This document shows, piece by piece, positions 27,651-46,190 of a DNA stretch of 64,000 nucleotides; the first letter of the stretch is position 1, and the number at the start of each line of letters is the position of its first letter. A program made the position numbers and the translations under genes. Where the stretch lies: contig MU004190.1 in assembly GCA_010093605.1 (NCBI GenBank), positions 1,372,961 to 1,436,960 on the forward strand, read 5' to 3'. The notes below the pieces were generated by a model. It ran no database searches, had not been told where the DNA came from, and saw only the letters and a list, made by a program, of their open reading frames with translations. This DNA comes from Lophium mytilinum (lineage: Eukaryota).

Positions 27651-28113
27651 TCAAATAAATTGCAAGGATTCCAAGGTCTAAGAAAGTAGTTCAAATGCAT
27701 ATAATGCGCTTCTGTAGTAATATTTCTCTACACAGTTTTTCTAGGAGGCAGAGAGTTGAGGGAAGGTGGAAGGTGGGATGGCTGACGGCGATTGAGAAAA
27801 AGGCATTGCGGGATGGAGCATCGCCACCATCTTCTTGTAGCTTAGGCTCTTTCATATCGTCTTCTCATTGGTTTCTATGCCGTTGTGGCTTCGCACGCCG
27901 GATTGCTTGTGTGGACGCCGTAGATGTTGTTCAACAACGAAAATGTGCCGACAGATCCGACTTCTTCATCCCCACTTTTGCCCTGACACGTGATCTCCAA
28001 CGTCACCTCAACACATTCTCGCTCAAAACAGCATCCTTTGACCCAAACTCTCAATCTCGCGTGTCTAGACTGTTACATTGGCACTGGCAATTTTTCATCT
28101 GTGCAGAGGCGTT

Positions 28114-28720
28114 TTCCGGCTTTTTCAGTCATGGCAAACGGACACTTCGCCGGCTTCAATCTGAATGCTGTATCTCAGGCCTGATTCAATTCATGAGCTT
28201 CGGACCAAAGCACGATAAACCCCGCTGATTTGAGTGCGCTAGGTTTTACATGGCTAATTCTGCGGGTCGCGAACGTAACATCTATGTCGCGACTTCGAAC
28301 TTCTATTCAGGGGGGTCTTCCGGCTTTTTCAGTCATGGCAAACGAACACTTCGCCGGCTTCAATCTGAATGCTGTACCCTAGGCCTGATTCAATTCATGA
28401 GCTTTGGAACAAAGCACGATAAAGCACGCTGATTTGAGTGCGCTAGGTTTTACATGGCTAATTCTGCGTGTCGCGAATGTGACATCCATGTCGCGACTTC
28501 GAACTTCTATTCGGGGGGTTCTTACTAATTTTCGGCCACAGCAAATAGAAATTCAAATTGCTTCGAAATACGTGCTATAGCCTAGGATATTTCTAATCCT
28601 GCGTGTCTCGAATGTGACATCTATATCGAGATTGCTAACATCTGCTTAGGAGGGTCTTGCTAATGTTTAAACCTTGCCAAATAAAAACTTAAACTGCTTC
28701 GATATGCGTGCTCTAGCAAA
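28114..28720. repeat. ~204-bp tandem repeat: 2 near-identical copies plus shortened degenerate copies
   Basis: tttttcagtcatggcaaacg at 28121 and 28325; gctgatttgagtgcgctaggttttacatggctaattctgcg repeated. Confidence 0.9.
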
Positions 28721-29560
28721 GGCATGTCTAATTTTCGAGCCGCTGACGTATATGCGGGGTATCACGCTAATACACAACGCGCCGGCTACAACATCCAGTC
28801 TGGAATAAACCAGTAGCAAGGGGAACCCTAGACGGTATTATGGGCGTGGAAAAGCATTACCCGAACTGCTTTAATATGAGTAATCTAGCCTATAATATGT
28901 CTAATATCGAGCCGTTAAAGTATAAGCGAATGATAACGGCAATACGCAATGCTCTAACCATTACATCTAGCCTGAAATTGATCAGTACCAGGGGGAACCC
29001 TTGACGGTATCACGCATGTGGAAAAGCAACACCCAAACTGGTTTAACATGAGTGCTCTAGCTTAGCCTATGCCTGATTCCGAGCCGTACACGTACACGTG
29101 AATCACCACCTTAATACGCAGTGCTCTAGCTCTTACATCGAACTTGAGATTAATTAGCATCAAGGGGGACCCCAAACGGTATCACGCACATGGAAATGCA
29201 TCAGATAAGGTACAACTATTTGAGTGCTATCTGAGATCATATCTAACTTCCGAGTATTTAACGTACACATAAATCATCGCGCTAATACCCACTGCTCTAG
29301 CTATTACATCGAACTTGATATTAATTAGTATGAGGGGGAACCCTAAACAGTATCACCCGTATAGAAAAGCATTAGATAGGGTAGAAGTATATAAGGAATA
29401 GCTCGCAGTATGTCTGATTCCCGAGCCATTAACGTGCACGTAAATCATCACGCTATTACACAGTGCTCCAGCTATTACATCCAACCTGAGATTCATTAGT
29501 ATCAGCGGGAACCCTAGACGGTACCACACATATAGAAAAGCATTAGATCGGGTTTCTCTA
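28720..29560. repeat. ~171-bp tandem repeat, 5 diverged copies
   Basis: Core gggAaCCCtagACGGTAt...GAAAAGCA at about 28821, 28991, 29164, 29334, 29506. Confidence 0.9.
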
Positions 29561-29639
29561 TACTGAGGTTCAAGGAAATTTTGTATGTCATTACGCTAAT
29601 TACCGGCTATGCCGCACACGCACCCGCACACGCACACGC

Positions 29640-29876
29640 ACACGCTCGCAGTACACGAAATGGGCCTATTAGGGCCCACACAAAAGCAAAGAGCCGAAAG
29701 ACCCGCACGCAAACACTGGGAATGAGCCTATTAGGGCCCAAACCCAATGCAAAGGGCCGAAAGACCCGCACGAAGCAGCCACACGCAAGGCCGAAACACA
29801 AACAAAAACAGCAAAAAAGGTCAAAAAAGAAAAGAAAATGAAGGAAATGTGACTACGCCGCACCCTGGCCACCCGT
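29640..29876 (-). other. Conserved non-coding 3' element (copy A) with an internal ~62-bp duplication and GC-rich hairpins
   Basis: Reverse complement matches 42952-43140 (gggtggccaggg..agtca.att.cctt; gtttcggcct.gcgtgtgg; tgggccctaataggcYcatt). Confidence 0.85.
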
Positions 29877-29884
29877 ACTCGTGC

Positions 29885-32008
29885 TCAATCGAGCCAGTCG
29901 TCGTCGTCGTCGGGTAGGGGGAATTCCGCCTGCGCCTCCATTACGCGTTGTGCTTCTTCGGCAGAGAGAGTGCTCAGATCCGCACTAAGATTTAGAGGAG
30001 GAGAAGTCGAGCTAGAAGCAGTCATTGTAGAGGGAGCCGTTGTTGTAGAGGAAGCCGTTGTTGGAGAGGGAGCCGTTGTTGAAGAGGGGGACGCCTTCGA
30101 CTTCGGAACCTTCGGCGCAGCTATGATTCTGGGCTTCGTGCAAACGCCTGGTAGCTTCGAGGCCTTGTTGAGCAATGGAATGACTACGTCTAGCTCGTCG
30201 TGCAGCTCTTGGGCAACGGCCTCCCGAGGTTCGGGGAGGTCACCCACTTTGTTGACAAGATCGAACAGACGATAGCGCTCCCAATTGCTCCATGCAAGCT
30301 CCGCTTCGTTCAGCGGGATCTTGTCCGCCTGGAGCAACTGCTTGGTGTCGCGGAGAATTGTCACCAGGCTCCGGCCTGCAGTACGGTAGTCTACGCCATC
30401 TCTGATCATGGTCTCGATACTCCGGCAATAGGAGGTCACACGGGTGCCTTTACGTCCGTAGTAGTCTAGATTATCATCATGTTGCTTGACTTCGGCCGTG
30501 GTGTACTGTGCAACTGTCGTACCGAACGGTTGCGACGCGCTCTGCGGTTGTGAGACCGCTGGCTGACTGAAAGCTGGCGCAATACCAGCATTCGTCTGAC
30601 TCTGTTGACCAACTGGAAGGATGGGTTGAGGGAGTGCTGAGGATTGCTGCTGCTGTTGCTGTGCTGCGGTGGCTTGGGTGGCCTGAAGAACTGGTTGTGA
30701 TACAGTCGTTTGTTGGCTGAGTTGAGGGAAGCTGAGAGAAGCCGTCGGAGGAGGCTGTTGCTGCTGCGGAGGAGGCTGTTGTTGCGGCGGAGGAGGCCGT
30801 TGTTGCTGCGCTGGCTCATCAATGTCCATTGGATCATCGAAATCCATTGGATCTTCGTGAATCATGTCAGAGGAAGCGCTATCCATATTGCTGCTAACTT
30901 GCTGAGCAGGGGGGGATTCAGAAATGGGAGGGGCAGGGGCCGGAACTGATGGAATGTTCTGCCCAGTCAATGCGAGCGCGGTGGGTGGATGTGCACCAAG
31001 ATTGGATTGCATCGTTGGATGGATCTGAAACCCTTCCGAGCCCGAGGTCGTAGTCCAGGTCCCGAACACGTGGTTGTCTGGCTTGAGAGAGCAAAGTCCA
31101 GAGGTAGAAACAGCCCTGGCATGGTGCTGGCCAAGATCTTGTAGGGCTTGCAGCAGGGGTTGGGCACGTTGGTCGTCTGCGTTGTTTGAGATGGTCTTGA
31201 AGAGTGTGTCCAGGGACTGCCATGGCCAATTCAGCCACTCTAGCTCAGCCGAGTTGAGGTCGATCAGGTCGCTCTCTAGCCTCGTGACCGCCGCCGTAAT
31301 CGCAGTGGTCAGCATGTACATCGACCAAGTACAGTCTTGGCCGCGACCGAAGCAGTTATCGAAGATGACGAGCTGTTCAAGCACATGATGCCTCTTAGCA
31401 GCGACCCAGTGCAACGACTTCACGCGATCCTTCTTCCTCTGTTGTTCACGCAGTCTCTCCCCGAGGGAGGGCACGGAGACTGGGGACGGGCCAAGAAGAG
31501 TCTGAGAGGATGGCGAGGGAGAGGCGGTGTAGCACTGCGCGCGTAGGCCCACATTGACGCTCTTCGGATACCAGCACAGCGTACCAACTACGTATCGGTT
31601 AAGGTGCCTGTAGCTATCCCAATCTATATCCTGGTTAGGCATTGATTCACCACATAGAAAAGAATCCGCGACATACCTATGTTTCCGGCGGCGTCTTGAT
31701 GGTTCATCCACTCTACGGCCTCGTTGCCGGTGAGATTGAGGATACGGCTCATCTCCATGACTAGATACATCGGGAAGGTCTGGAAAAGCCCTGACGCCTT
31801 GGGCAGTCCCATCATCGCCCAGTGAAATGCCTGCTCGAAGGTGGGTTTGACAGACTCCGTGATGCCGTAGAGGCCTCCGAACAACGAGAGCTCCTGTAAC
31901 GATGCGTTAGTCTTGACGTTGCGACAGCGCATCGGCGAGTGACCTATCGCGACGCGAAGGGGCTCGCGCATCAAAAGAGAGCCACGGGTAGGTTGCACTT
32001 ACAGTCAT
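29885..32008 (-). CDS. Orphan protein A: two copies of an unassigned ~100-aa helical domain with a Q/P-rich linker; multi-exon
   Basis: ATG ACT|gtaagt micro-exon at 32008; exon ELSLFGGLYG..PTFEQA; long ORF with DLIDLNSAELEWLNW..SGLCS and DKIPLNEAELAWSNW..LPGVCT. Confidence 0.75.
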
Positions 32009-32747
32009 TGCGACGGTGATGGCGGTGGATCGACGGAGGGAGGAGGTGTTGTGGTGCGGTAGCTGTTGGCTCGCGGTGAAGTAAGGTTGAAGTGGAGGTT
32101 ACGCAGCAGGTTGGCTATGCAGTTGATGGAGCAGGAAGCGGGTTGGAGCTGTGCAGGGTTGGAGATGGTGAGGTGGTTGTCTCGTCGACTTACGAGGTTG
32201 GTGTGTGTGGAAAGGTTTCGTTCGTCGGCGTAGAGCTGGCTGTTTATCTGTGGGCGAAGGCGGGCGCCGGGCTGCGCGGGCCGGGGGGACGGGAGGTGCA
32301 CGGCTGGAGACGGATAGCAGACGGCGTTGAGGCTGCTCGGTTCACATTCACCTGCTGCTGGTTGCACGTGATATAAAAGAGGTTGAGAGAAGGGGGTCAC
32401 GTGTCCTCCACGACTGCCACGCCAGGCCCACCATCTTATCAGCTTCGTCCTGGCTGCCGTCGAAAGTGTATATAGAAAGAGATGAAAGATTTAACATGTA
32501 ATTGTATAATGACTTACTTCTGCTATAACTTACCTTACCTTCAACGACCAGGTGTGCAAAAAGCGGAGGAAACGTCACCGAATATGGACCAATTGAGACA
32601 ACATAGAACAATCTAGGTACCTACAAACATAGGCTGGAAGTTCCTTATCAAACCACAAATGCGGTCAAAGAAACACTGCTTCTACATCACGTTCCAGTTG
32701 GGCATATGAAGACTGCAACCGTGCAAAGCGTATACTAATGTGTCAGG

Positions 32748-33200
32748 AGTCTACACACACGAAAATGGCATTGCTTATGCTGCAATTTTGCTCTCTCGAT
32801 AGCACTGTCAGGAGTAGCCTCGCGGGCTGTTAGCCGGTTGGTCAAACAGCAGCCTGATTTCCACCGCACCGACGTCTCCACCTTGACGCGAGTCTCAAAG
32901 AGTCTACACACACGACATGGCATTGCTTACGCTTCATTCTTGCTCTCTCGATAGCACTGTCAGGAGTGGCCCCGCGGGCTGGTAGCCGGCTGGTCAAACA
33001 GCAGCCTGATTTCCACTGCACCGACGTCTCCACCTTGTTGCGAGTCTCAAAGAATCTAGACACACGACATGGCATTGCTTGCGCTTCCTTCTTGCTCTCT
33101 CGATAGCACTGTCAGGGGTGGCCCCGCGGGCTAGTAGTCGGCTGGTCAAACAGCAGCCTGATTTCTACTGTATCAACGTCCACATCTTGTTGCGAGTCTC
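32748..33200. repeat. ~152-bp tandem repeat, 3 copies
   Basis: gtcaaacagcagcctgattt at 32841, 32993, 33145; gctctctcgatagcactgtcagg three times. Confidence 0.93.
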
Positions 33201-34890
33201 GAAGACCCATCAGGGTACCTCATACAGTGGCAAGTATCTCTAATTTCTTTTGCTTAAAATGTCATGCTAAATCGGACTCCGTGGCTCCCGCACTCACCGA
33301 TGAAGCAGCTTCAGCACGCTGAATCGTTTCTTGTCCCGGAGACTTGCTATATTGACGCCGTCCCTCAAAGTGAGACCCCTATCATGGCTCTACCTTGTTC
33401 CTTGGGGACAACACGGAACTAGGGCTGCATCACGCGGAATGCGATCCACAAGTGGTGCATTTTGCGATGGGGTTTTGAGCCTATCTTCGCAAAATAAAGG
33501 CGCCTGAGGAAGTAAGAGGGCCTGTGAGGCCGACTGGAAGGGGGGGGGCCGCAGAGTAGAACTTTCTCCAGGGCATCTATATATGCGTAAAGAGCTGAAG
33601 TTGAGAGGTCACGATAAAAGGATGAGACGCGACGAAAGCAAAGATGCGTGTCGTCTAGAGCGCCGCGGAGTTAGTCCCACCCCTATTCCGAGTCTAGTCC
33701 AAACGCGGTCTAATGCCCTAAGCTAGTGGTCGCCTACCAAACTAGTCTATTAAGGTACTGTACTGTCGTACAAAGGTAACGTCGCAATATCGTCTGATGT
33801 GCTCGGGGTCATAATGATCAATGCATTTGCATGCACACGAAGGACTCACGAGACATCTGACAGGACCAAATTGAAGTTGTCATCATGCAATGTCGTAGTC
33901 TTGATGCGGTCCGTATGCTCATAAGGCTGGAGTAGCAAAGGCCGAATGTAGATGCCGCTCATCTAGCGTACAGGGCTGGGGGCCCAAGAATAGCGGCAAA
34001 GGGGGGGAGCAGCCTCAATCCATGCCGCCAATCAAGATTCGGTCCGTTGATTTAAAAGCTTAGCTTTCCAACCCGCCACTTCGGTGGCGCCACAGCTGAC
34101 AGTTCATTTCGCCCCACCGCAAGAGACTGGGGAATTTGCTTCTCGAATATCTCTCTATCCACCGTTGGTCATTAACGCCGTCAGCCCGCCATGAGCCCAA
34201 GAATATGTACCTACAAAGAAGCACTGCCTAGCAAACAACTGCTAGGTATCGTTCATGATCCTCCGTCTTGCGATCTATCCTCCAGCCGGAGATCGATCCC
34301 CCAGCTTACTATTGATCTTTCAGCGTCACTATTGGTCCTACCGGCTACGGTTGCGCCTTTCTCGGCTTCGGCTACCGCTACCTCAGCGCGCACTTGAGGA
34401 TGTACGGTGTGAGAGTGGCATTACTCCTGACTGGGGAGCCACTGGCGGGGGGCCTTGAAGATGCTTAGCCTCCTCCTCAACCTATCATGGAGCGTTATCT
34501 CGTCAGGCCGCCCGGATGTTCTCGCCGATAGTGTAAACAGGCATTTATATGAAGACGCCTGATCCTAATTGGCGATGTTCTGACAAGCGGTATCCTATCC
34601 TGGAGCAGGTGCCTAGGTATAGGGCTCCTAGTGCTAGATCTTCATTTCTCGTGGTGGCTTAGCAGTGATCTTCCGTTCCTATGCGGGTGGGTTGCACTAT
34701 GCAGAGCCTCTTGCGTCAAGGGTATGGCCTGTTCGTCGATGGGGGCTGTACGTCTCTAAATCTTACGTATGAGTATATAGCTGTGAAGAATCCCTATCAA
34801 AGTATTTGGCCATCACATCATTCCAACTCATAATCTCCTATCTCGTCTACCTTTTCCTTCAGACGTTCACTATCCAAGCAACCGTTTACA

Positions 34891-35851
34891 ATGAAGTTCA
34901 GCAGCACTCTTCTGGCGCTCGCCTCAACCGCCACATTCGTTCATGGTTTCTGCGACAATGAAGACTACGACCATGACATCCTAAACATATCCAAGGCAGA
35001 AATGCACGGCGACAGGGCCAGGGCGCGCCGGGCTTTCGCACCTATTGAAGTCGATCTATATTACCATCTGATTGTCAAGGAAAACCCAATGCCCCCCCAG
35101 TTCACGTGGGACGGTCTGTGGAAACAGATTGATTATATGAAAGCAGCATATAAACCCTACGGAATCACTTTCAACACAAAACCCGTAGACATCATTGTCA
35201 ACGCGGCCTGGGCCGACGACATCAACTACAAGGTGCCAGCGGATTTTAAGAAGGTCCACAAAGGAGGCTATAATGCGGTCAACATATATGCCGGACAAGG
35301 CTACACGAGCGGCGTGTGCTCTTTCCCCGCGGGCATGGAGGCCGACAAGCTCGTGCCGCTTACCCAGGACGATGTCACTTTCGATGGGTGCCATGTAACT
35401 TTGGGTGCTGCGACGAACCCAATCAGCGGAACTCCGTCCCACGAAGGTGAGTTCAACAACTCCCGTTTTTTGATGCATCTTGCTGACTTTCCCGTGATTG
35501 AAGTTGGCCATTGGTTCGGATTGTTCCATCCTTTCCAAGGCGGCTGCACCGAGCCCAACGACTATTGTGACGATACTCCTCAGCAGGCGAAGGCTTCCTA
35601 CTCGCACGAGACCGTGACGGGTAACAAGAACACCTGCCCGGCTGTGAACACTTGCCCCAACAACCCTGGCAATGACAACGTCTTCAACTTTGTAAGTTCT
35701 CCCATGCAGCGATTCCAAATCATTACAAGTCGCTAACGTCGCCTGGCAGATGGACTACACCGACTGCTCCCACGAGTTCACTGCTCAGCAGGGATGGCGC
35801 ATGAACACCGTCTTCGATAAATACCGCCGCAACAGGCAAGTCGCTGCATAA
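34891..35851 (+). CDS. Secreted M43 (pappalysin/ulilysin-type) zinc metalloprotease, 3 exons
   Basis: Signal peptide MKFSSTLLALASTATFVHG; HE|VGHWFGLFHPFQGGC split by an intron; DYCDDTP; Met-turn NF|MDYTDC. Confidence 0.9.
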
Positions 35852-36549
35852 AAACATCATGCATACCATTGAGCAACTGTCTGTCGGTTCAGTTGACCGA
35901 GTCTCTGTATATACTTGGACACACTCCTTTGGAAGATACAGTTTGGGCTGCATTTTGATGGCATTCAGAAGCGAGGCATTTGGAAGCGAAGCATTTGGAC
36001 GCGAGGTATTTGATATTTGATAAACACAAGGCCCCTTCGCCACGAAAAGGCTATGCAGTAATAGAAGTTTGGAGAATTCTCAATTCGAACATTGCTTCAT
36101 GTTCTTGCTTTGTTCGACTTTTGATCTTGATGACGTCGGATTTGGTACTCCGTATTGTCCGATTGCTCTCCGCTATGTTTTGGTGCTAGGCAATGTCATC
36201 TCGCATTGATGGATCAACGTATCGTACTGAGCGGTTGCGATCTTGTAATTTATTAGAATACAAAACCCTGCGAGGTGAGGCTGGAGAAACCAGGGGGCAG
36301 GGGTACCACATACTTCGTAGCATTTAATGCCACAACTAATGGGTTAGCGAATTACCCCGCCTACGTCGCTCGATCTCCTCCTTTTCCTCACTTTAGCTTC
36401 CAGGTACTAAGCCTCTCCATCAGGTCGGCTTAGGAGTATATCATTTAGACTTCTCCTCCAAAGGCATTGCATCCCTGTTGTTTTAGTCGGCCGAGTAACG
36501 AGATTCAGTCAAGATTCTACGCCCGGGAGCTTCTCCCAACCCTGGAACA

Positions 36550-37659
36550 ATGTCCGAACCACAAAGATTACGAGTTGGCGTCATCGGAGCAGGAGAAGTT
36601 GCTCAAGTGATCCATCTTCCTGTATTGGCTCTCCTGTTTCATCCCTACTCTGTCACGATAATCTGCGACATCTCCGCGAAGAACGCCTCACATTGTGCCG
36701 CAAAATTCCATATCTCTAAGTTTACTACCTCTGCTGCGGATGTATATACAAGCCCAGACGTTGATATCGTCTTCATTCTTACCTCGGACGAGTTTCATGC
36801 TGAGTATGCAATCGCGGCGCTGAAAGCTGGCAAGCACGTTATGGTTGAGAAGCCAATTTCACTCTCTATGCAATCTGCAAAGAGGATTATCGATGCAGAG
36901 AAAGAAGCAGGAGGGCCAAGGGTTTTCGTAGGGTACATGAGACGCTATGCACCAAGCTTCGTGCAAGCATTCAAGAGAGAAGTCGCAGCAATACCCCGAG
37001 TGCTTTACGCTAGATCCCGAGATTTCAGCGGACCAAACGCACAATTCGTGTCGCAATCCGGCACTTTCCAGGTGCAGAATACGGACTTCCCTCCCGGAGC
37101 AGGTGAGGAGCGGACGAAACGGCTCAATGATCTTTTCGCAGAGGCTTTAGAGGGCCGAGAAGTCACGCCGGAGAAGAAGAAGTACTGCCGCTTCCTAGGA
37201 AGTCTGGGTTCGCATGACATTTCTCTCCTACGAGAAACTCTTGGGTTCCCCGAGTCTGTTGCTGGCGTCTCTGTCAATGAGCCATTCTATTCGGCCATCT
37301 TCAATTACAAGAACAAATCGGGCGAGCCGTTTGCAGTCACTTACGAGAGCGGCATCGATGGAGTGCCGAACTTCGACGCGCACCTTGCGGTCTATGGCGA
37401 GAAGAAACGAGTATCAATACAGTACCCATCTCCCTACGTGAAAGGACTTCCCATCATAGTCAAAGTCGACGAGCTGAATGAGCATGGCGAGACGCAAACG
37501 AGAGAGATATTGTCATCATACGAGGACGCGTATACGGCTGAGTTGAAGGAGCTTCACGCATGTATCACGCAGGGAAAGACGATCAAGACGTCTGCGGTGG
37601 ACGCGCTAGAGGATTTGACATTATACGACATGATGTACAAGAAGTATGAGGGAATTTGA
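36550..37659 (+). CDS. Gfo/Idh/MocA-family NAD(P)-dependent oxidoreductase (inositol dehydrogenase-like), intronless
   Basis: RVGVIGAGEVAQ, AGKHVMVEKP, VGYMRRY, LGSHD. Confidence 0.92.
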   Translation: MSEPQRLRVGVIGAGEVAQVIHLPVLALLFHPYSVTIICDISAKNASHCAAKFHISKFTTSAADVYTSPDVDIVFILTSDEFHAEYAIAALKAGKHVMVEKPISLSMQSAKRIIDAEKEAGGPRVFVGYMRRYAPSFVQAFKREVAAIPRVLYARSRDFSGPNAQFVSQSGTFQVQNTDFPPGAGEERTKRLNDLFAEALEGREVTPEKKKYCRFLGSLGSHDISLLRETLGFPESVAGVSVNEPFYSAIFNYKNKSGEPFAVTYESGIDGVPNFDAHLAVYGEKKRVSIQYPSPYVKGLPIIVKVDELNEHGETQTREILSSYEDAYTAELKELHACITQGKTIKTSAVDALEDLTLYDMMYKKYEGI

Positions 37660-38861
37660 TGATTGCCACTGGAAACCTCGGCAAGCTAATAAAATATATG
37701 GATGCATCGTAGCCTTCAACCCCACTCGCAGGCTTCTATATGGTAGAGCGTATTGGCAACCCTGACAGCTACCGAAACGTGCTGCCGTCGTTATCAGGTC
37801 CATTCATCCGACAAGCATATGTCCCTTGTTGATATGTCGTCTTACTTGCTGTATGCTAGCCTAAAGCTGACAGCCTCGTTGGTTGATGTTCATTGTTCAT
37901 TTACTTTCCATCCTCATGAACCTTTTCTAGTGCGGCGACTGAAGTCTTCCTTCCAATTTTGTTGACCTAATTTTATCATTGATTACAGCCTCATAATGGC
38001 GTTGAATTGGAACAATCACCTACGGAAATCAAGACTGGTAGCAAACAAGGCGCCCACGTATTTGTGCACAGTGTTTGCGTTTTACCCTATATCCAAGCTC
38101 TACGGCCTAAAGTTTAAGCAAAGGAGTGCCCAGGTTTATGTCCTAGTAAAGCAAGTAACATTCTTATCCAAATCTAATTTTAACTACACGCTCTCTTTGC
38201 ATATATGCTATCAAGTAACTAGAAGCAATTGAGAGGGCTTTGGACGAGGGTGGTGTGTAGCATGTGATCCCCTGACCTCAAACCTCTATCAAATATACAA
38301 CGATGCTAAGCTTGTTAACGACGCTTCCCAACAGGTGTGTAACGTGTGTATAGAAACTCTACAATCCAGTCCGGGTTGGCAGTGCTGTCGGCATGGCGTA
38401 ACTACGTCTTCTGCCTCGCGGCTCATAACTAGCGTTCGTCAACATTCACCAACTTTACACCGCCCCGGTCTCTACTTTCCTCACGCCTTTCAACTCCCGC
38501 GCTGCTCGGTCATCCGCCTCCAACCGTTCACTCCCACCCAGCCGGCTCCTCCGCACGTGCACGCAGCAGAGCGTCCTGGCCTCCCGCCGTAGCCTCCGGC
38601 CGTCCACCTCACACAGACATAAAAGGCTAGCTCGATCACTCACTCACCAACCAAACCTTCTTCTCCACCACCGCAACCGGTACAGCATCACACACCCACC
38701 ACCGCATCAACTCACAACCTGCATCCTCCACAGTCTTCATCAGCACACAGCTTCTATCACTGACAGTTCTTGCGCAACCTCGTGTCTCGCTGTATCTACC
38801 GGCTTCTCGAAATACCACAACCCTCCAACATCTTTCACCTCCCTCAATCCCCACCGACATC

Positions 38862-41800
38862 ATGGTCGTAAGTGAACCCCCCATCCGCCCTAGTCGCCAC
38901 CCGCTATGATCTCCTCCTTCGCCTCGCGACTATGTGCTCAAGGAAACGAATACTAACTCGACCTTGTAGTACTCCTACGGTCGCTCCATGGACCACAAGA
39001 ACCCTACGCTCGAACAATACTTTGGATTAGGGCCGAAGACCACTTGGGAGCAGGCGCGCCTGCTCGCCAACGATGGTATCAGAGACTACAGCTTCTCTGA
39101 CGACCATTACCTGGCGCTGGTCATGGCCAAGACGTTGGATCGCGATAGTAAGAGTATCTGGCGCGAACACGACCTAAGGAAGTCTATCGTCTTGCATCGT
39201 GACGCGGGATACGACGTGAGCGCCATCGCTACTCGACACAATGGTAGGCCAGAGACCCCTCTCCATGCTCATTGTATTTCTCTAATAAAGAAAAGTGACC
39301 GAGGAGGACGTCCGATCCGTCTACGCCTGCCCGGGAATTGCAACAACCAATGGTAAGTCATGCCATCTCCTCTCTCAATTCAAAACAACTCGGTCGTAAG
39401 TCTGCGCACATGGATTCACCACTGCTTGGCTCGCGCCTTGATCACTCGCCACCACTGTAAGGGGTGGCCTAGCTGTACAGTGACCAGTCGGTCAAGAGGC
39501 ATCCCAATTTGCACTGCTTGAACATCAACATCGTTCTTCGAATTTGAGACCCGGTCAGGGTACACCAAGCAGTAGCGAACGAGTGTCCGCAGACTTTTCG
39601 CCTGTCTCTGATCTCTCCGCTCCAGCACATTCGTACTAACTCTCGAGCGATTTAGGTGGTCTCGCAGTCGATCCCATCGGGCATCGCCCAAATCCACACG
39701 GATCTTCCCCATATCCGCCCGCTACGACGCCAATGCAGCCGTCCGACCCGCCCTCACCCTCGCCCACTCAGCCTGCCATGCAAGACCTTGGAAGTATGGG
39801 GCGTCATAAAGTGACCAGGGATGAGGAACCACCCGTCGGCCCAACTGGACAGTCGCTCGGACTCCAAGCTTCCGTAGATGGTTTGGGTAAGTTCTATTCA
39901 CCTATACTACCAGCTAGCGCCTTCTAACGCTATATGATCAGGATATACAGCGGCACTTGGCCAAGCGCAGAGGTCTAAACAGGACAAGAAAGACCACAAG
40001 ACACTCCTAAAAGGCCTAAAGGAGAAGAAAGGCTGGCTCGAAGAACGTCTTGGACTCTTCGTTAAGATGATGAGTCAGAAGAGTGATTGCAGCAATGTTG
40101 TGCATGAGCTGTACGGCTTGTTCGAGAGGGTCAACGGGTACTTCGAAAAAGACCCGATTCCGCTCAATGCGGACGATATTGACTGGATAGGCTGGCCCGT
40201 CGAGGATCTAGACGGTTACTTCAAGGTGTTACTAGAGGCGGCGCAGTCAGGGTGTCGCTGGGTTGAACCGGCTGCTCTAGAGCTACAAAAGCTGGGAGGA
40301 TATCTCAACACAGCGCAGACTACCCCTGGCGTTTGTTCTCTCCGCGAGGGAGCCCTGCCGTCCCTCGGATCCTATCCGACACAGGCTGCGCAACAAGCCC
40401 CAATCGCCCAACCTCCCTCGGTTCTGAACAGCTCACAATCGTCGTCAAGTACGAATATCTTCGGGTTTCTGGCCAAGCCACAGCATGCGCCCTCAGTCCT
40501 GCAAACTTCGCAGCCAGCGCCCGCCTCCAATCCCTTCGTCAATCTGACGAATCCGCAGAATGCTCTTTTGTCGTCTATGCTGGAGCAGCAACCGGCACAT
40601 TGCCCCGATACCATGGAGGGCATTGACACAACGCCCCATTTCCCCGACCACAACAGCCGCTTGAAGTGGGTCCAAGATACACACCAGGAGGTCATGGTCG
40701 AGGCGAGCAAGCTGTATGACGCGCTCGGCACGACCGGAGGATGCGAAGCTCAACTGAGTCGTCCGAAGGAGCTGTTTGACCAAGTCAGCAGCGCTCTCGA
40801 GGGAGACACCGTTCCGATGAACAACGGCGAGCTCGCATGGATCAGGTGGGATACCAACTCTCTCCAACTCTTGCTGAACAAGATGTTATCCATTGCGGCA
40901 CCCCGCTCGCAGGTCTTCTGCGACACTGGAAGTGCCCTTGAAATGCTCTTGGCGCGTCTGGAGCAAGCTTCTAGAACCCCAGGTATCTGCTCGATGGGAG
41001 GCGGCCCGCAGCCACCACAGGGAGCTCCTAGCACTTTCGGACAGCCCTCGCAGCAGCCACAGGCTGCGCAGAACTCGCCCTTCTCCAACCCGCCTTCAGG
41101 TCAATTGGGGTCTTCGCCGTTTGGTTCTTCTGCCTTTGGACAGCCCTCACAGCAGCCACAAGCTGCTCAAATCTCGCCCTTTGCCAATCTGAGGTCAGGT
41201 CCCCTGGGCTCTTCTCCATTTGGACAGCAGACCCAGCAGCAACCGTCATCAGTGGCTCAATCTGCATCCCCATTTGGCGGACTGGGTCAATCCAACACCA
41301 GTCCTTCCCCCTTCGGCCCATCGATGGCCCCCCAGCAGCCGAGCGTGTTCCAACAGACTCAGCAGCAACCGTCATCGATGGTTCAACCCGCGAACCCATT
41401 TGGCGGACTGGGTCTAACCAATGCCGCTCCTTCACCATTTGGTCAAGCAACAGCCTCGCAGCAGTCGAGCGGATTCCAGCTGCACTCCAAGCAAATCTCG
41501 CCGGAGGATGCCCACAAGGCATTCCTCGACTACGCGAAGCTGAAGTCCAAGGACATCAAGGACAAAAGCCAAAAGGTCATGAATGGCATTAACGACTGCA
41601 AGCCATATAGCTCGGCACTCCGCAACCTGTTGACTTACCTTCAGGACTGCAGGAAAAGGCTTGTCGACGACCCGACACCGCTCAACAAGGGTGACGTTAA
41701 ATACATTCGCTGGAACATCGACGATCTCCTAACTTTGGGCCGGGGTCTCCAAGACTTCGGTGATAAAAGCGATGCCAATGTCGGAAAGACGCTGAGTGAA

Positions 41801-42889
41801 CTCTCTCAGCTCATTCCACGGTTGCAAACCGCGCGCCAGACGCCAGGCGTGTCTGTCCTAGCATCGCAGCGCGCGCCGACGCAGCCAAGCTCCTCCCACG
41901 TATCAGGGAGCCTTCCACCTCGCAATGCCGGACAGCCGTTTTCCAGGATGGGAGCCTCTGCGGCGCCTTCGAGCAGCCTCCGTAACGCGCCGCCCCTTAG
42001 CAACACGCCTTCTCCCTTCCCCCAGCCGACATCTTCTGGTGGTCCTCCCAGGAACTTTGGACAAGGCTTCAACATGCAGGGCATGGCGGCACAGAGTGGG
42101 CAGGGTTCCACCCCGAGCCTGGGCAATATGCCGGCTCTTGGGAGCAAGCCCACTCGTAGCTTGCGCGACATGCCCGCTCTCTCTTCAGAGTAGTACGAAC
42201 TGTAAGTCAGCCGCTTTTTTCAACTCTCGTTCTTCTTCGACTCCTAGGATTGTAGCTAAGACTAGTAACAGTTCCTTGAGTCTATCGCCGACGCGGAGTG
42301 CGCTGGCGGAGGGGAGTGTGAGTGCGCAGAATGAACCCAATCAAGTTTCAAAAAGTCGGAGCGCCTTAGGCGCACCATAGCCGAAACAGAAAACCCAAAA
42401 ACACAGCAAAAGCACCCCAAAAAAACAGCAAAAGCAGAAAACCCAAAAACAGCAACCAATTGCAAGTCTATCCAGGGGAGCACCGTCATCGAAGGGAAAA
42501 TCGATTGCTCCACCTCCTACACCGAAATTGAATGCACCGAAGGAGGGTTCCGTGCGGAAGACCGTCGTTGACGAGGATTACAACGATCGTACACCAGACG
42601 GAGATGCTTTGGCCGAGGCTATGAAAAAAATGGGGGTGAAAGAAGCGAAGAAGGCGCCAAAGAAGGTGCTAGAAAAGGCGCCAATGAAGGCACCAGATAC
42701 AGATGGGTTAACTGCGAGCATGAACAACGTGGCGGTCAAGCCCCTATATGTCGCGAAAGGGGAGCTCGTGCAGCCTCACGAGCTGAAGAAGCGCGAACGC
42801 AAGCCTGCTTTCAATGTGAAATTGGTATGTCATCCGCGGTTGTATTGTAGGGTTTCCATTCTAACTTCACATAGCTTGGTGCGAGTTAA
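38862..42889 (+). CDS. Orphan protein B, paralog of A: three copies of the same domain, an FG-rich linker and a Lys-rich tail; in-frame TAG at 42191-42193
   Basis: ATG GTC|gtaagt micro-exon; TTWEQA exon; DPIPLNADDIDWIGW..TPGVCS, DTVPMNNGELAWIRW..TPGICS, DPTPLNKGDVKYIRW..TPGVSV; downstream exons 42272-42317, 42381-42824 and 42875-42889 splice in phase. Confidence 0.7.
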
Positions 42890-42951
42890 GGCCGCGTAGG
42901 CATCTGGATGGCCTCGATGGGCTTCAATTAGATAGAGCGCGAGGGCAAAAA

Positions 42952-43140
42952 GGGGTGGCCAGGGCGAGGGGCAGTCATATTCCCTTTCCTTTCTTTTTCC
43001 CTTCTTTACTTTTCTGTCTTTTGGTGCTGCGTTCTATTGCGTTTCGGCCTCGCGTGTGGTAGGGGGAGGCGTGCGGCTCTAAGGGCCTTGTGTGTTATAT
43101 GGGCCCTAATAGGCTCATTTCGAGTATTGCGAGTGTGTGT
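42952..43140 (+). other. Conserved non-coding 3' element (copy B)
   Basis: Inverted homolog of 29640-29876. Confidence 0.85.
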
Positions 43141-43254
43141 CCCTTTTGTGCATCGTGTCCCTATTTGGGCTCGATGAGAGTACTGCGAGCGGGTGCGGCA
43201 TGGCGGAATACTGGCGTTGCGAGATACCCAATGATTATGAACCACAAAATTGCT

Positions 43255-44200
43255 ACAAACTATCCATTGCTTTTCCACATACGTGATACTGTCTAGAGTT
43301 CCCCCTGATCCCACTTGATTTTAAGCCGATGTAATAGCTAGAGCGTTGTGAAATAGATGGTGGTCAATCTACATGCGCCCTAGATCCGTTTCTCCAAAAC
43401 CCCAGGGTATTGGAAATCACAGCTCTCAAGTTTAAGCTTTCGATCTGTTGCATTGATACTATCATGACGCCGTTTGAGGTACTCCACAGCATCCTTAAAA
43501 TTATGATACATTAATTTGACGGACCTCAGAAAACTGCAGGGCCACGCCCTTTGGAAGCAAAAATGTTTGTGCGGACGAACACTAAACTCTTCACTCTAGA
43601 ATCTAGGATGGTAGTGCTCATAGCCTATGAATATAGCTTCCCCTTCTACGAGAATGTCGTTGTGCTAGCACCGTCTGAAGTGCCCTAAATGATTCTTCCT
43701 AATCTGACACTCATGTTCTTGACTAACCTTATGTATTGCCGGTCAGTTTTTAGTGGTGGCAGATACTTGTATGTCAGCATGCGCTTGACTTTTTGCGCCT
43801 GATTTAGAACGTATCAGAAGTCCCAGCTCATGAATGGGGTCTTCTGTTTTACGGTATTGTCAACGTTTTAGCACCGTCTGAAGCGCCTCAGATCCTCTAT
43901 TAATATTGACAGGTACCGTTTTGCCCAGCCTTATATCTTGTCGGCCCTCTTTTGGCGATGATAGAAAAGTACGCATGGACAATCATTTAACTTCCTATTC
44001 TTGCTACAAATCGCTTATTAGGGCTGGCTTATAATCCTAGGTTCATCTTTAATGATAGTGCCGTGGTCGTATCGCCGCCAGGAGTGCCTCAACGCCCTTA
44101 CCTAAATTTATATACTGTGGCTTTGACGGACCTTATACCTCGTTGGGCCGCCTCTGGCGGTGCCAATAAGATGTGCGCCTATTCTACTTAACTTAGGGAT
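43255..44200. repeat. Degenerate ~190-202 bp tandem array (~5 units); inverted relative of the 171-bp array
   Basis: 43265-43350 is the reverse complement of the 171-bp unit; related cores at about 43275, 43466, 43667, 43870, 44071 (agcaccgtctgaag.gcc twice). Confidence 0.75.
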
Positions 44201-44329
44201 ACGATCGGCGATACGTCTCAGATTACAACAGAACTGGCTTAAATTCGGACACTAGAGCGAGCCAGCGTTTAGAACTTTATTCACTCAACTCTATGGCGAG
44301 AAGGTTTCATAGTCCCCATTCCATGGACC

Positions 44330-44780
44330 TTTACATTGCTCATTGATTTTTTCATGCTTGATAGCGTTGTAAGAGATGGCCCAGCTAGAAGATTCCAGGT
44401 GAGTCAAGAGGTAGTCCCACACAGAGTGCCAATGGATGCTCTTGCGGAAAACCTGCGCAACTACGCCGCCCATTTAGATCGACCAACTGGCCACAAGTGG
44501 GTCATTGAAGGATATGCCAACTACACGGTGGCACTCATTTTGAAGATCTTCCAAGTCGAGTTCAAGTCGGAACCACCGGCAAAAGTCTCGACACATACGG
44601 TATGGGAAATCATGCAGTTCTGTATCAAGTACGATGTATACACGGGCGCTTTCAAACCATGGTTCAGGTACTGGTATCGCTGTGAGATGTGCGACGATGA
44701 AGGAGACTTGGAGATTGTCTAGTTTCAATTGTGTTCACCTTCACATCATGTTCGGAGAAAGGACGGTTTCATGTGAAGGA
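44330..44780 (+). pseudogene. Probable degenerate fungal BTB/POZ-like gene fragment
   Basis: RRFQVSQE..VALILKIF..VWEIMQFCIKYD..FKPWF..WY, then in-frame TAG followed by FQLCSPSHH..GF; no clear ATG. Confidence 0.5.
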
Positions 44781-45869
44781 AGAAGAGCAAATCAAGTTGA
44801 CGGCGTCGTTTTTCGCAGAGTCGTCTGCGTCGGCCTGAATGAACCAGTCTCTCGCACGCTTTACTACTTAATAGCGCTATGAGGGGGACCTTAGCTGCTA
44901 TTTACTCCGTAGGTCAAAAGAAGGTCAATCTCTACTGCGTTGACCTTGACATCATGTTCACAGCTTCTGCACGCATGATACCGCTGTGTGGAGAAGCTCA
45001 ACCAGTAAGTTGCCTAGCAGCCAAGCGGTGGTCTATTTTCCAGTGCGTTAAACTTTGCACTATGTTGTTTACTCTTGCGTGCTTGATGCCATCGTTTGGA
45101 ATAGCTTGGCTGGCAGGAAGTTCGTTAGCCAAGAGGAAGCACACCATCGATGCCAGAGATGAAACCCCTTGAAATTCTCTCCGAACTCATACACTCGGAT
45201 CTTCCCTCGGTCAAGCCGTAATGCTGCTTGCTCGACAACATCGCCAGGAGTACCCCAGCCAGCACGTAGCTAGCCCGTCAAAAGGAATCCTAATCTCCAT
45301 CCCAAAGAATCTGACTCTAGTGTAGTCTTCTTAAGACCATCCGCCCGTATATACCGTCGTCCAAGTCGAGTACTTGCTCGCTCGATACAACCGTCAGGAT
45401 AGTCTCTGCAAGACGGTGGCTAATCAGTCACACGGTAGTCTCATTTCCAATGAATGGAAGTAAGGATAGGCATGTGGATATACGTCTGCATAAACTTCAC
45501 TATTTCTCACTCAATATCGCTGTCAGGAGCAGCCTAGCTAGTACGAGGCTGTGCAGCCAAGGGAAGTCTGACTTGCAATGCATTGAAAAGGGCATAGGCA
45601 CACAGATACACGACTACTCAGGCTCCGCTCTTGAGTACACAACACCACCGTCGGGAGTAGCTTAACTATTAGGTAGCCAGGCAGCCAAAAGGTAAGCCGA
45701 TCTCAAGTGCATTGATTCATACAGTTAAATTAATCGCAAGCTAATATACGACCGCTCAGACTCCAAGCTTGCCACATTGATACCATCGTTCAGGAATATG
45801 CTGGTAAAAGGGTTGCTAGTCAGTCCAAAGATAGCCTCATTTAAACGCTCCGACCACCTGCACTCCCCC

Positions 45870-46190
45870 CTATATCTTCCCCTCCTCCCCCTTCTTCGCC
45901 GTCTCCTTCTGCAAATCCTCCATATGCTCATCGTGATCATCCACCTTCTGCTGGTCCGCTTTCACGTGACTTTCGCTCTGGCTTCCAAGCTCCTCGTGCC
46001 AATGTCCCTCGCCCTTATCCTGCTTCTTCAGCTGCTCCTGCTTCTTCGCTTCGATCTCTTCTCCGCTGCGGTTGGCATCTTCCTTCAATTGGCGGAAAGG
46101 TGTGGTTGCGAATGAGCGAGAGATGGGGGTGACGCGGAGAGATGATTGGGCGATGGTGGGGAATCGCTGGGGAAGGCGGAGGAGTGGCAT
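45870..46190 (-). CDS. Small conserved fungal protein, probably mitochondrial, function unknown
   Basis: Arg/Ser-rich presequence ending RSFATT; KKQEQLKKQ..GEGHWHEELGSQSESHVKAD. Confidence 0.8.
   Translation of the reverse strand: MPLLRLPQRFPTIAQSSLRVTPISRSFATTPFRQLKEDANRSGEEIEAKKQEQLKKQDKGEGHWHEELGSQSESHVKADQQKVDDHDEHMEDLQKETAKKGEEGKI

Follow-up and report, generated by a model that had tools for sequence, protein, structure and literature searches.

Does this 64-kb stretch of Lophium mytilinum DNA (the window hereafter, meaning all 64,000 nucleotides analysed) harbour a mobile or cargo-carrying element built from two inverted gene units, or the outcome of an old local duplication? An earlier note on the sequence had described two paralogous units of identical order, each with an upstream motif, a micro-exon gene, a 3′ element and a tandem array, enclosing two enzyme genes. 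It read them either as a dispersed or mobile gene unit or as the arms of a large element that carries cargo, and named an old local inverted duplication as the simpler alternative. If mobile or cargo-carrying, the locus would represent a eukaryotic element of a new kind. What the analysis supports instead is the old local inverted duplication, and neither the mobile nor the cargo reading is supported.

Two outward-facing paralogs enclose two enzyme genes

29885..32008, minus strand: left paralog (sequence, translation and joints of spliced RNA contigs)
34834..35736, plus strand: largest exon of an M43 peptidase gene (Pfam PF05572)
36499..37659, plus strand: Gfo/Idh/MocA oxidoreductase gene (Pfam, E 1.6e-25)
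38863..42193, plus strand: right paralog (sequence, translation and orthology to the Mytilinidion resinicola protein P0006)
42194..42952, plus strand: transcribed stretch between the right ORF stop and the 3′ element (RNA contig joints, depth 18.5)

The two genes diverge from each other and face outward. Their long ORFs match in BLASTP (E 8e-18, 28–35% identity across module copies), confirming the inverted paralogous pair that the earlier note had recognised, and the N-terminal exon can be aligned among both paralogs and both orthologs. Both genes begin with the two-codon exon that had been read from the sequence (ATG plus one codon, then GTAAGT). On the left, exon 1 (32008–32003, ATG ACT) is followed by an intron (32002–31894), exon 2 (31893–31677), a second intron (31676–31624) and exon 3 (31623–29885). 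Run X3, which we presume to be RNA and whose GT..AG joints agree with that presumption, contains spliced joints for the micro-exon intron (31892>32002) and for the second intron (31623>31677). The right gene comprises exon 1 (38863–38868, ATG GTC), an intron up to 38969, exon 2 (38970–39243) and a large exon from about 39942, which lies within ORF 39938–42193; the small exons preceding the large one were read by eye and are consistent with P0006. The X3 RNA contigs do not cover introns 1–4 and the first exons of this gene, including the micro-exon (bin 38723–39339). Visual inspection places a TATA-like stretch about 245 nt upstream of each ATG.

Beyond the stop codon of the right gene, the transcribed stretch of about 760 nt carries two spliced introns (42202–42271 and 42825–42874). 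It is a long 3′ UTR or, alternatively, carries a small Lys-rich ORF of its own (42621–42889, 72 aa), for which Pfam returned no match.

The two enzyme genes predicted to lie between the paralogs were both recovered by Pfam. The M43 peptidase match has an E of 7.1e-6 and scores 26.5 bits, above the cut-off of 23; RNA contigs support an intron joint in this gene (35691>35750). The Gfo/Idh/MocA gene is named myo-inositol 2-dehydrogenase in many relatives; its product is 80% identical to the counterpart in Glonium stellatum (Dothideomycetes), and an RNA contig (36410–38219) covers it at a depth of 181. It is widely conserved in fungi, with 891 proteins at E ≤ 1e-60 among 8000 scored candidates. 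On the flanks, Pfam identifies an MFS gene to the left and a Gpi16 gene to the right. The GC content of the block is similar to that of the flanks, and the 64-kb window has no tRNA gene.

The paralogs belong to a family of helical-module proteins

Both paralogs consist of repeats of an all-helical module of about 130 residues, which is confidently folded in structure prediction. The left protein has two modules, a Q/P-rich middle and a C-terminal PDDDDDWLD, the right protein has three modules joined by FG/NPF/Q-rich linkers, and the left-type ortholog in Mytilinidion has three. Neither paralog matches any Pfam family. The top matches of a PDB profile search were designed proteins (best E 0.0066), and Foldseek found nothing at E ≤ 1e-3. 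The best VIA-align score (Z 8.8 to Kar9, rmsd 2.9, 104 aligned) falls in a range that the tool describes as common for helical models. In the ESM Atlas, neither P0005 nor the module had a usable feature match, and the structure rows for P0005, which derive from a poor model, all have TM ≤ 0.21 by query. With a pLDDT of 63.6, the model of the N-terminal exon is too weak for searching, and the resemblance of "...SAIATRHNVTEEDV..." to an HTH is accordingly no more than an impression.

When 1.84 billion protein representatives were searched with a profile, five matches reached E ≤ 1e-3: three full-length family members, a metagenome fragment of 87 aa and a probably spurious low-complexity protein. 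This uncharacterised family is thus represented so far by the present fungus, M. resinicola and one metagenome fragment, and only two family lineages appear among the representatives, with one M. resinicola ortholog per paralog. P0005, the left-type ortholog, is 50% identical to the left paralog and ends in PDDDDDDFWKD, while P0006 matches the right paralog (36% identity, 417 residues aligned, E 4e-66), most closely in the first module. The accession numbers of the two orthologs (KAF2802474.1 and KAF2802477.1) are three apart, which fits two intervening genes as in the Lophium window, and we read them as lying on one contig, the same longest contig figure (446,750 bp) being given for both; synteny is judged here from accession numbering rather than coordinates. 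An M. resinicola Gfo/Idh/MocA ortholog is absent among the 120 matches listed, so the two intervening genes there may differ.

Word-indexed protein searches with residues 1–360 of the right protein, and with a four-protein alignment for which only the candidates with the most words in common were scored, retrieved nothing beyond the window's own ORF or P0005. Low-complexity sequence is abundant in both queries and likely swamped the index, which makes these searches uninformative on family distribution. A scan of metagenome contigs with the protein alignment yielded 188 pattern matches, of which tblastn confirmed none.

A collinear 3′ element is kept while synonymous sites are saturated

29600..29874, minus strand: left 3′ element (self-similarity and alignment; begins 10 nt past the stop codon)
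42953..43240, plus strand: right 3′ element (collinear with the left element)

Self-comparison of the window revealed significant inverted DNA similarity, as anticipated, but only between 28947–29874 and 42953–43356, in BLAST pieces of 72–178 nt with 68–79% identity (E 1e-6 to 1e-12). The shared order of the two units stands for the gene and its 3′ element. The upstream motif is not significant by BLAST (best E 0.93), and the 5′ flanks and introns have no significant similarity between left and right. The non-coding parts, which had been called alignable by eye, proved so in the 3′ flank and not upstream or in the outer arrays.

The two 3′ elements are collinear over about 290 nt, with 175 of 286 alignment columns identical (61%, or 67% without gaps) and identical runs of 20, 12, 12 and 10 nt, and the right element starts about 760 nt past the ORF stop (42193) as opposed to 10 nt on the left. 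The matches are clustered (p 0.0024 for the longest run, p 0.0004 for window variance) in a test that permutes the columns of a MAFFT alignment, and aligners tend to make such anchors. Synonymous sites between the paralogs are saturated: at conserved residues, 30 of 65 third positions are identical versus 26.4 expected, overall third-position identity is 0.29–0.38, and flanking coding sequence is 41–50% identical at the nucleotide level.

The core of the hairpin assigned to the conserved 3′ element, GGGCCCTAATAGGCYC, occurs three times in the window, only inside the 3′ elements, versus 0.03 occurrences expected. The left element combines a pyrimidine tract with two such cores (29662–29677 and 29724–29739), and the right element has one (43101–43116). 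Comparison of the three copies gives a single one-sided C/U change but no compensatory pair, and the whole elements do not fold clearly better than shuffled sequences (z −2.08 left, +1.03 right). Other motifs of interest in the 3′ flank are GGGTGGCCAGGG, GTTTCGGCCT, TGGGCCCTAATAGGCTCATT and GTACTGCGAGCG. No Rfam family matched at E ≤ 1, the 20-nt core pattern had no match in metagenome contigs, and a scan of the right element for bacterial-type promoters and terminators gave nothing above chance. A coding origin of the element was rejected, because the gap lengths between the two copies are not divisible by three and TAATAG provides stops in two frames.

X3 RNA contigs extend into both 3′ elements, and the next bins outward have a depth of 0 (on the left, bin 29468–30084 is covered and the following one is not).

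Tandem arrays differ between the arms

28098..28523, no strand: left distal tandem, two 204-bp units, 91% identical (TRF, self-BLAST)
28458..28732, no strand: left 135-bp unit, two copies, 74% identical (TRF, self-BLAST)
28691..29553, minus strand: left 172-bp array of about five units (TRF, self-BLAST)
43260..43356, plus strand: single core of about 100 nt of the 172-bp unit, right (BLAST, alignment)
43622..44165, no strand: right degenerate tandem, period 203, about 2.7 units (self-alignment; overlooked by TRF)

Both arms had been credited with an array of 170–204 bp units. The left arm has one, whereas the right arm contains no 172-bp array, only the core of about 100 nt and a degenerate 203-bp repeat. 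The sequence of about 100 nt beyond the 3′ element is thus common to both arms, present as a five-unit array on the left and once on the right. The cores of the left units are 64–84% identical to one another, with neighbours most similar, and the right core is 66–75% identical to the five left units, placing it about as far from them as they are from each other. Transitions outnumber transversions by about 2:1 among the units, which gives no strong pointer to RIP as the cause of their divergence. The left 172-bp array stands at single-contig depth in the DNA runs and is mostly free of X3 RNA-contig cover (bin 28851–29467).

Further out, the 135-bp unit is transitional between the 204-bp and 172-bp units. 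The right 203-bp periodicity is genuine (58% over 346 nt, 62.5 bits versus at most 24 in 30 shuffles), and it cannot be aligned with the left 204-bp and 135-bp arrays (best 19.7 bits, below the 25.4 that shuffles attain). No X3 RNA contig covers 43659–44892.

The arms are single-copy at 80% likeness or more, and no mobile-element gene was found in the window

32747..33205, plus strand: 152-bp tandem, three copies, upstream of the left gene (TRF)
39398..39545, plus strand: dispersed-element copy in an intron of the right gene (alignment to the upstream copy)

In run X1, a DNA assembly of the organism with 45.4 Mb of contigs, one contig spans 28439–45500 with 0 differences, and the DNA contigs break only at the left 204-bp tandem. 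The summed depth over 28851–30701 and 39957–44892 equals that of the spanning contig alone. Hence, no second copy of the 3′ elements or arrays exists at 80% likeness or more, which is the range that the depth test sees, the two arms themselves being just 68–79% alike. The same test did reveal a true dispersed repeat, at two to three times the depth, at 32931–32971 and 39400–39533. The units upstream of the left gene are copies of this short element (about 150 nt), which has further copies elsewhere in the genome: the upstream copies have a depth of 346 versus 165, with seven loose-end contigs that carry other flanks, and the intronic copy has a depth of 466 versus 165, again with loose ends in other flanks.

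Consistent with the first reading of the locus, Pfam found no transposase, recombinase, RT or helicase among 47 ORF translations of the window. No DUF3435 captain was matched among the window ORFs of at least 140 aa or the block ORFs scanned, and the block offers no definable element boundary.

Origin of the locus

The locus is probably the product of an old local inverted gene duplication that included about 400 nt of 3′ flank, the tail having been kept by purifying selection as a cis-acting module. One lineage-specific gene would have been duplicated head to head and fixed in the chromosome, apparently before the split from M. resinicola. Coding sequence, introns and 5′ flanks would then have diverged to saturation and modules would have been gained or lost, while the first 290 nt and the next 100 nt or so behind the genes stayed recognisable. 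In the left arm, the final 172 nt of this flank may have been amplified in tandem in place and later decayed, and the outer 203/204-bp arrays would be unrelated local satellites.

The similarity of the tails could also be younger than the duplication, if ectopic conversion or repair between the arms copied about 400–700 nt that then decayed neutrally to about 65–75% identity. Conversion is known to act on inverted repeats within a single chromosomal region. The similarity is limited to one collinear tract (29874–29453 versus 42953–43356) with all else saturated, the left units are about as distant from one another as from the right unit, and no function is required. We nevertheless consider this fairly unlikely: conversion needs a homologous substrate, but the flanking coding sequence is only 41–50% identical; the matches fall in perfect blocks instead of being thinned out evenly; and in-register copying would not yield a tract that lies about 760 nt past the stop on the right and 10 nt past it on the left.

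It is very improbable that the 3′ element and the 172-bp unit form a MITE- or SINE-like insertion behind each paralog, or that the gene with its cis-elements is mobile or selfish. Short dispersed elements do occur in this genome, one of them both upstream of the left gene and within an intron of the right gene, and copies less than 80% alike are invisible to the depth test. Yet no extra contig covers the 3′ elements or arrays at 80% or more in the 45-Mb assembly, where a true dispersed repeat is visible, and both tails have the same orientation and position relative to their paralogs. The restriction to two family lineages among 1.84 billion representatives, the empty metagenome search with the core pattern and the lack of any transposase, RT or recombinase match point the same way. 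That the units are arms of a Starship-like or composite transposon that carried in the M43 and Gfo/Idh/MocA genes is suggested by their inverted arrangement around two enzyme genes, but is hardly credible: no tyrosine-recombinase captain or other mobilisation gene is found among the 47 ORF translations of the 64 kb, the sequence shared in inverted orientation is 3′ flank behind diverged paralogs, not terminal repeats, the M. resinicola pair is also three accession numbers apart on one contig, the Gfo/Idh/MocA gene is widely conserved in fungi, and the GC content of the block is like that of its flanks. The two lineages, the M. resinicola pair, the single-contig depth and the lack of a mobile-element gene together give the picture of a two-copy, apparently syntenic locus that the earlier note had held to speak against mobility.

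Under an old duplication with a selected tail, the GGGTGGCCAGGG box, the pyrimidine tract and the GC-clamped hairpin with its CUAAUA loop would act as a 3′ UTR or 3′-end module, most likely as a protein-binding platform that gives both mRNAs common post-transcriptional control or 3′-end formation. Selection is here deduced from two paralogous copies in one genome, and the unit core of about 100 nt may lie past the mRNA end, in which case a role at the RNA level would not account for it. A more far-reaching proposal, which we put forward as speculation and think doubtful, is that the whole tail of about 400 nt (GGGTGGCCAGGG box, pyrimidine tract, CUAAUA-loop hairpin and 172-bp unit core) is a family-specific cis-regulatory cassette, selected since before the Mytilinidiales radiation, whose distal part became an array of binding sites on the left. 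In its boldest form, the paralog products would recognise a motif in the tail, making gene and site array a self-regulating unit; this leans on the HTH-like appearance of the N-terminal helical region, an impression by eye that no search backs.

Comparison with known systems

The locus resembles MITE-like elements in its dispersed element of about 150 nt (three tandem copies at 32747–33205 and one at 39398–39545), from which the 3′ element and satellite are distinct, being single-copy at 80% likeness or more. Starships are giant cargo transposons of Pezizomycotina with a DUF3435 tyrosine-recombinase captain at one end. A block of several kb in which repeated ends flank accessory-looking enzyme genes recalls them, but no captain was found here, the repeats are gene 3′ flanks, and the block is apparently syntenic in a relative.

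As in inverted segmental gene duplications, the paralogs lie in opposite orientation a few kb apart and have a common exon structure from the micro-exon to the 3′ flank, in an arrangement that is fixed here and apparently present in a relative. Unlike in such duplications, the non-coding 3′ sequence is kept far better than synonymous sites, and just one of the two arms has a 3′ piece amplified into a tandem array.

Conserved 3′ UTR modules are known from co-regulated mRNAs, as in the regulons of RNA-binding proteins such as the targets of Puf proteins. The present tail differs in having no known motif or Rfam match and two known carrier mRNAs, with protein binding as a candidate property. It is like them in combining short perfect blocks and a small GC-clamped hairpin, in the same order, within a diverged 3′ UTR. 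A 3′ tail that outlasts synonymous saturation is a candidate conserved 3′ UTR or 3′-end control element, in a fungal group that has almost no functional genetics.

Two divergent paralogs with a shared 3' tail

The two long ORFs that lie on opposite strands within 28-44 kb are homologous (BLASTP E 8e-18, 28-35% identity across aligned modules). Both carry a repeated ~130-residue module with the motif PLN..E..W..W...PG(V/I)C, present in two copies in the left ORF and three in the right, and the linkers between copies are Q/P-rich or FG-rich. The main features of the two arms are as follows.

Features of the paralogous genes and their flanks (window coordinates)
29885-31906, minus strand: long ORF of the left paralog
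39938-42193, plus strand: long ORF of the right paralog
32008-32003, minus strand: first exon of the left paralog, ATG ACT
38863-38868, plus strand: first exon of the right paralog, ATG GTC
42202-42271 and 42825-42874: spliced introns behind the right ORF stop, seen in an RNA contig
28691-29553, left arm: array of about five 172-bp units
43622-44165, right arm: degenerate 203-bp periodicity (58% identical, 62.5 bits versus at most 24 in shuffles)

Both paralogs open with a two-codon exon, ATG plus one codon, followed directly by GTAAGT. The left micro-exon, proposed in the earlier note for both genes, is real, since contigs of run X3 show intron joints at 31892>32002 and 31623>31677 with minus-strand GT..AG ends; taking X3 as RNA is a guess, and its joints are canonical introns. 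On the right, where the first exons have no X3 cover, the claim is carried by splice signals and by agreement with P0006, the Mytilinidion resinicola ortholog. Where P0005, the M. resinicola ortholog of the left gene, carries a third helical module, the left gene itself shows poly-Q/P sequence (30700-31000), so a module was lost or degraded in this lineage. Microsatellites of 18 bp and 21 bp also occur in the left coding exon, at 30025-30088 and 30746-30810.

Self-BLAST of the window found the expected inverted similarity, confined to 28947-29874 versus 42953-43356. The paired-unit observation thus holds, in a narrower form than proposed. On both arms a ~290-nt 3' element is followed outward by a ~100-nt core of the 172-bp unit; the left element starts 10 nt past the stop codon, the right one at 42953. 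Collinear alignment of the two elements gives 175 identical columns of 286 (67% without gap columns), with perfect blocks TGGGCCCTAATAGGCTCATT, GGGTGGCCAGGG, GTACTGCGAGCG and GTTTCGGCCT (block lengths 20, 12, 12 and 10 nt). Across the 64 kb there are three occurrences of the hairpin core GGGCCCTAATAGGCYC, all inside 3' elements, versus 0.03 expected. Arrays had been described on both arms; the left array bears this out, its cores being 64-84% identical and most alike between adjoining units, while the right arm holds a single core (66-75% identity to the left ones). Beyond these, tandems of 135 bp and 204 bp occupy the left arm, and comparison of the outer left and right arrays gave no alignable similarity. 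BLAST gave no significant support for the upstream motif said to be common to both units: between the 5' flanks and introns of the paralogs the best E was 0.93.

The right ORF stop (42191-42193) is separated from the 3' element by about 760 transcribed nucleotides, over which an RNA contig reaches a depth of 18.5, some four times the 3.5-5 of the main ORF. The spliced form of 42194-42952 retains the stop in frame, and the single further ATG ORF in frame with the exons (42621-42889) encodes 72 Lys-rich residues with no match in Pfam. Two readings fit the stretch: a long 3' UTR that is spliced twice, or a small overlapping gene.

A probable old local duplication rather than a mobile element

The spliceosomal introns of the window genes (GTAAGT...CTAAC...AG) and their ordinary housekeeping neighbours (by Pfam, ketopantoate hydroxymethyltransferase, Dbf4, MsrB, MFS, Gpi16 and LUC7) identify the window as fungal. 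Between the paralog ORFs are the two enzyme genes that the earlier note had named, one for an M43 peptidase and one for a Gfo/Idh/MocA protein, and both are encoded on the plus strand; the best named relative of the Gfo/Idh/MocA protein among the matches listed is from Glonium stellatum (80% identity), which puts the window in Dothideomycetes, close to the Mytilinidiales/Gloniaceae group. A second contig, found in the DNA runs and the RNA run, matches the M43 piece 35533-35613 at ~89% (9 of 81 letters different), skips other stretches and has an RNA-run depth of 447, so the genome seems to carry another, highly expressed M43 paralog at a different place. The ~4 kb from the right array to the Gpi16 gene (44200-48100) contain no ORF of at least 150 aa and no Pfam match among the ORFs scanned, and include a 107-bp tandem at 46966-47167. 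At 6558-8925 on the minus strand, adjoining ORFs with weak NB-ARC matches and one TPR_12 match suggest an NLR-like gene.

The earlier note had preferred a mobile unit or the arms of a cargo-carrying element. The protein family is tiny: a HMMER profile built from five module copies and run against 1.84 billion representatives gave five matches at E ≤ 1e-3.

Matches to the module profile
P0005, Mytilinidion resinicola: 808 aa, three modules
P0006, Mytilinidion resinicola: 626 aa, two modules
The window's own ORF
An 87-aa metagenome fragment
A low-complexity protein, probably spurious

The left gene has P0005 as its ortholog (50% identical, the acidic-Trp C-terminus being common to both), and sequence comparison makes P0006 that of the right gene. 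Their accessions, KAF2802474.1 and KAF2802477.1 (XP_033569438.1 and XP_033569441.1), are three apart, and the same 446,750-bp longest contig is reported for both; we infer that the two genes share a contig, and the numbering would leave room for two intervening genes, the number seen in the window. No M. resinicola Gfo/Idh/MocA ortholog was found among the 120 matches listed for the window protein, so the intervening genes may differ.

In DNA runs X1 and X2 (~45 Mb of contigs), which may derive from the source of the window, one 18,572-bp contig spans 28439-45500 with 0 differences, and this contig alone accounts for all of the depth summed across the 3' elements, the 172-bp array and the right array. 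These elements and arrays are single-copy at ≥80% likeness, a threshold below which the test is blind, the two arms themselves being 68-79% alike. As a positive control, the same test picked out 32931-32971 and 39400-39533, where depth rose 2-3x and loose ends ran into foreign flanks, and alignment identified these places as copies of one ~150-nt dispersed element; the depth and the several loose ends show that further copies exist elsewhere in the genome.

Copies of the ~150-nt dispersed element in the window
32747-33205, plus strand: upstream of the left gene, a tandem of three 152-bp copies
39398-39545, plus strand: in a right-gene intron, a single copy

An RNA contig over 32744-33620 spans the tandem copies. 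A scan of 47 translated ORFs from all over the window gave no match to transposase, recombinase, RT or helicase families, in line with the original reading of the sequence. A mobile or cargo element is rejected on the tiny family, the adjacency read from accession numbering, the elements that are single-copy at ≥80% likeness and the lack of mobile-element genes; taken together, these findings are of the kind that the earlier note had said would refute its proposal, and they favour what had been named as the simpler alternative. The locus is probably the product of an ordinary, old inverted duplication, local in extent, of a gene that is uncharacterised and lineage-restricted.

Conservation of the 3' tail

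The duplication probably predates the split from M. resinicola. Common ancestors within Mytilinidiales are placed at roughly 26 and 71 million years in the part of Peter et al (2016; PMC5023957) concerned, where M. resinicola is undated. An internal silent-site clock is more telling: synonymous third positions at paralog-conserved residues are identical in 30 of 65 cases, versus 26.4 expected from codon usage, and third positions overall are 29-38% identical; therefore, silent sites are saturated. Against this, the 3' element remains 61-67% identical between arms. Permutation of the alignment columns shows its matches to be clustered in blocks (longest run, p 0.0024; window variance, p 0.0004), with the caveat that aligners tend to create anchors. 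RNA contigs extend into both elements and fall to depth 0 in the adjoining bins on the outer side (28851-29467 and 43659-44275), so the elements lie in, or at the end of, mRNAs.

The main rival to selection is a later conversion of the 3' flank followed by neutral decay. Because silent sites are saturated, matches are clustered and the elements sit in, or at the end of, the mRNAs, we favour purifying selection, which would act on a 3' UTR or 3'-end module common to both mRNAs. The case for RNA structure within the element is weak: a small hairpin, with one G-C to G-U change, is the sole structure that all three copies have in common, the fold of the whole element does not clearly outperform shuffled sequence, and no Rfam family matched. 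Kept well beyond silent-site saturation, and on one arm partly expanded into a tandem array, the tail is the one feature worth follow-up.

The protein module and its possible relatives

Modelled from a five-row alignment, the module is confidently predicted to fold into six helices (pLDDT 88.1, pTM 0.77). It is without a convincing relative: Pfam matched no family in the paralogs, Foldseek against the PDB gave no match at E ≤ 1e-3, ESM Atlas gave no usable match, the PDB sequence profile search returned designed proteins only (best E 0.0066), and the best VIA-align score (Z 8.8, Kar9) lies inside the range that the tool calls common for helical models. The N-terminal exon is homologous across both paralogs, P0005 and P0006, with a model of poor quality (pLDDT 63.6). 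An acidic run with one tryptophan, after an amphipathic stretch, ends the left paralog (29885-29960) and P0005, as PDDDDDWLD and PDDDDDDFWKD, respectively; the right paralog has no such ending. As leads to a possible function, we take the left ending to resemble the acidic-tryptophan motifs of actin- or coat-binding adaptors, and the NPF/FG-rich linkers of the right protein are presumably akin in character to those of endocytic adaptors.
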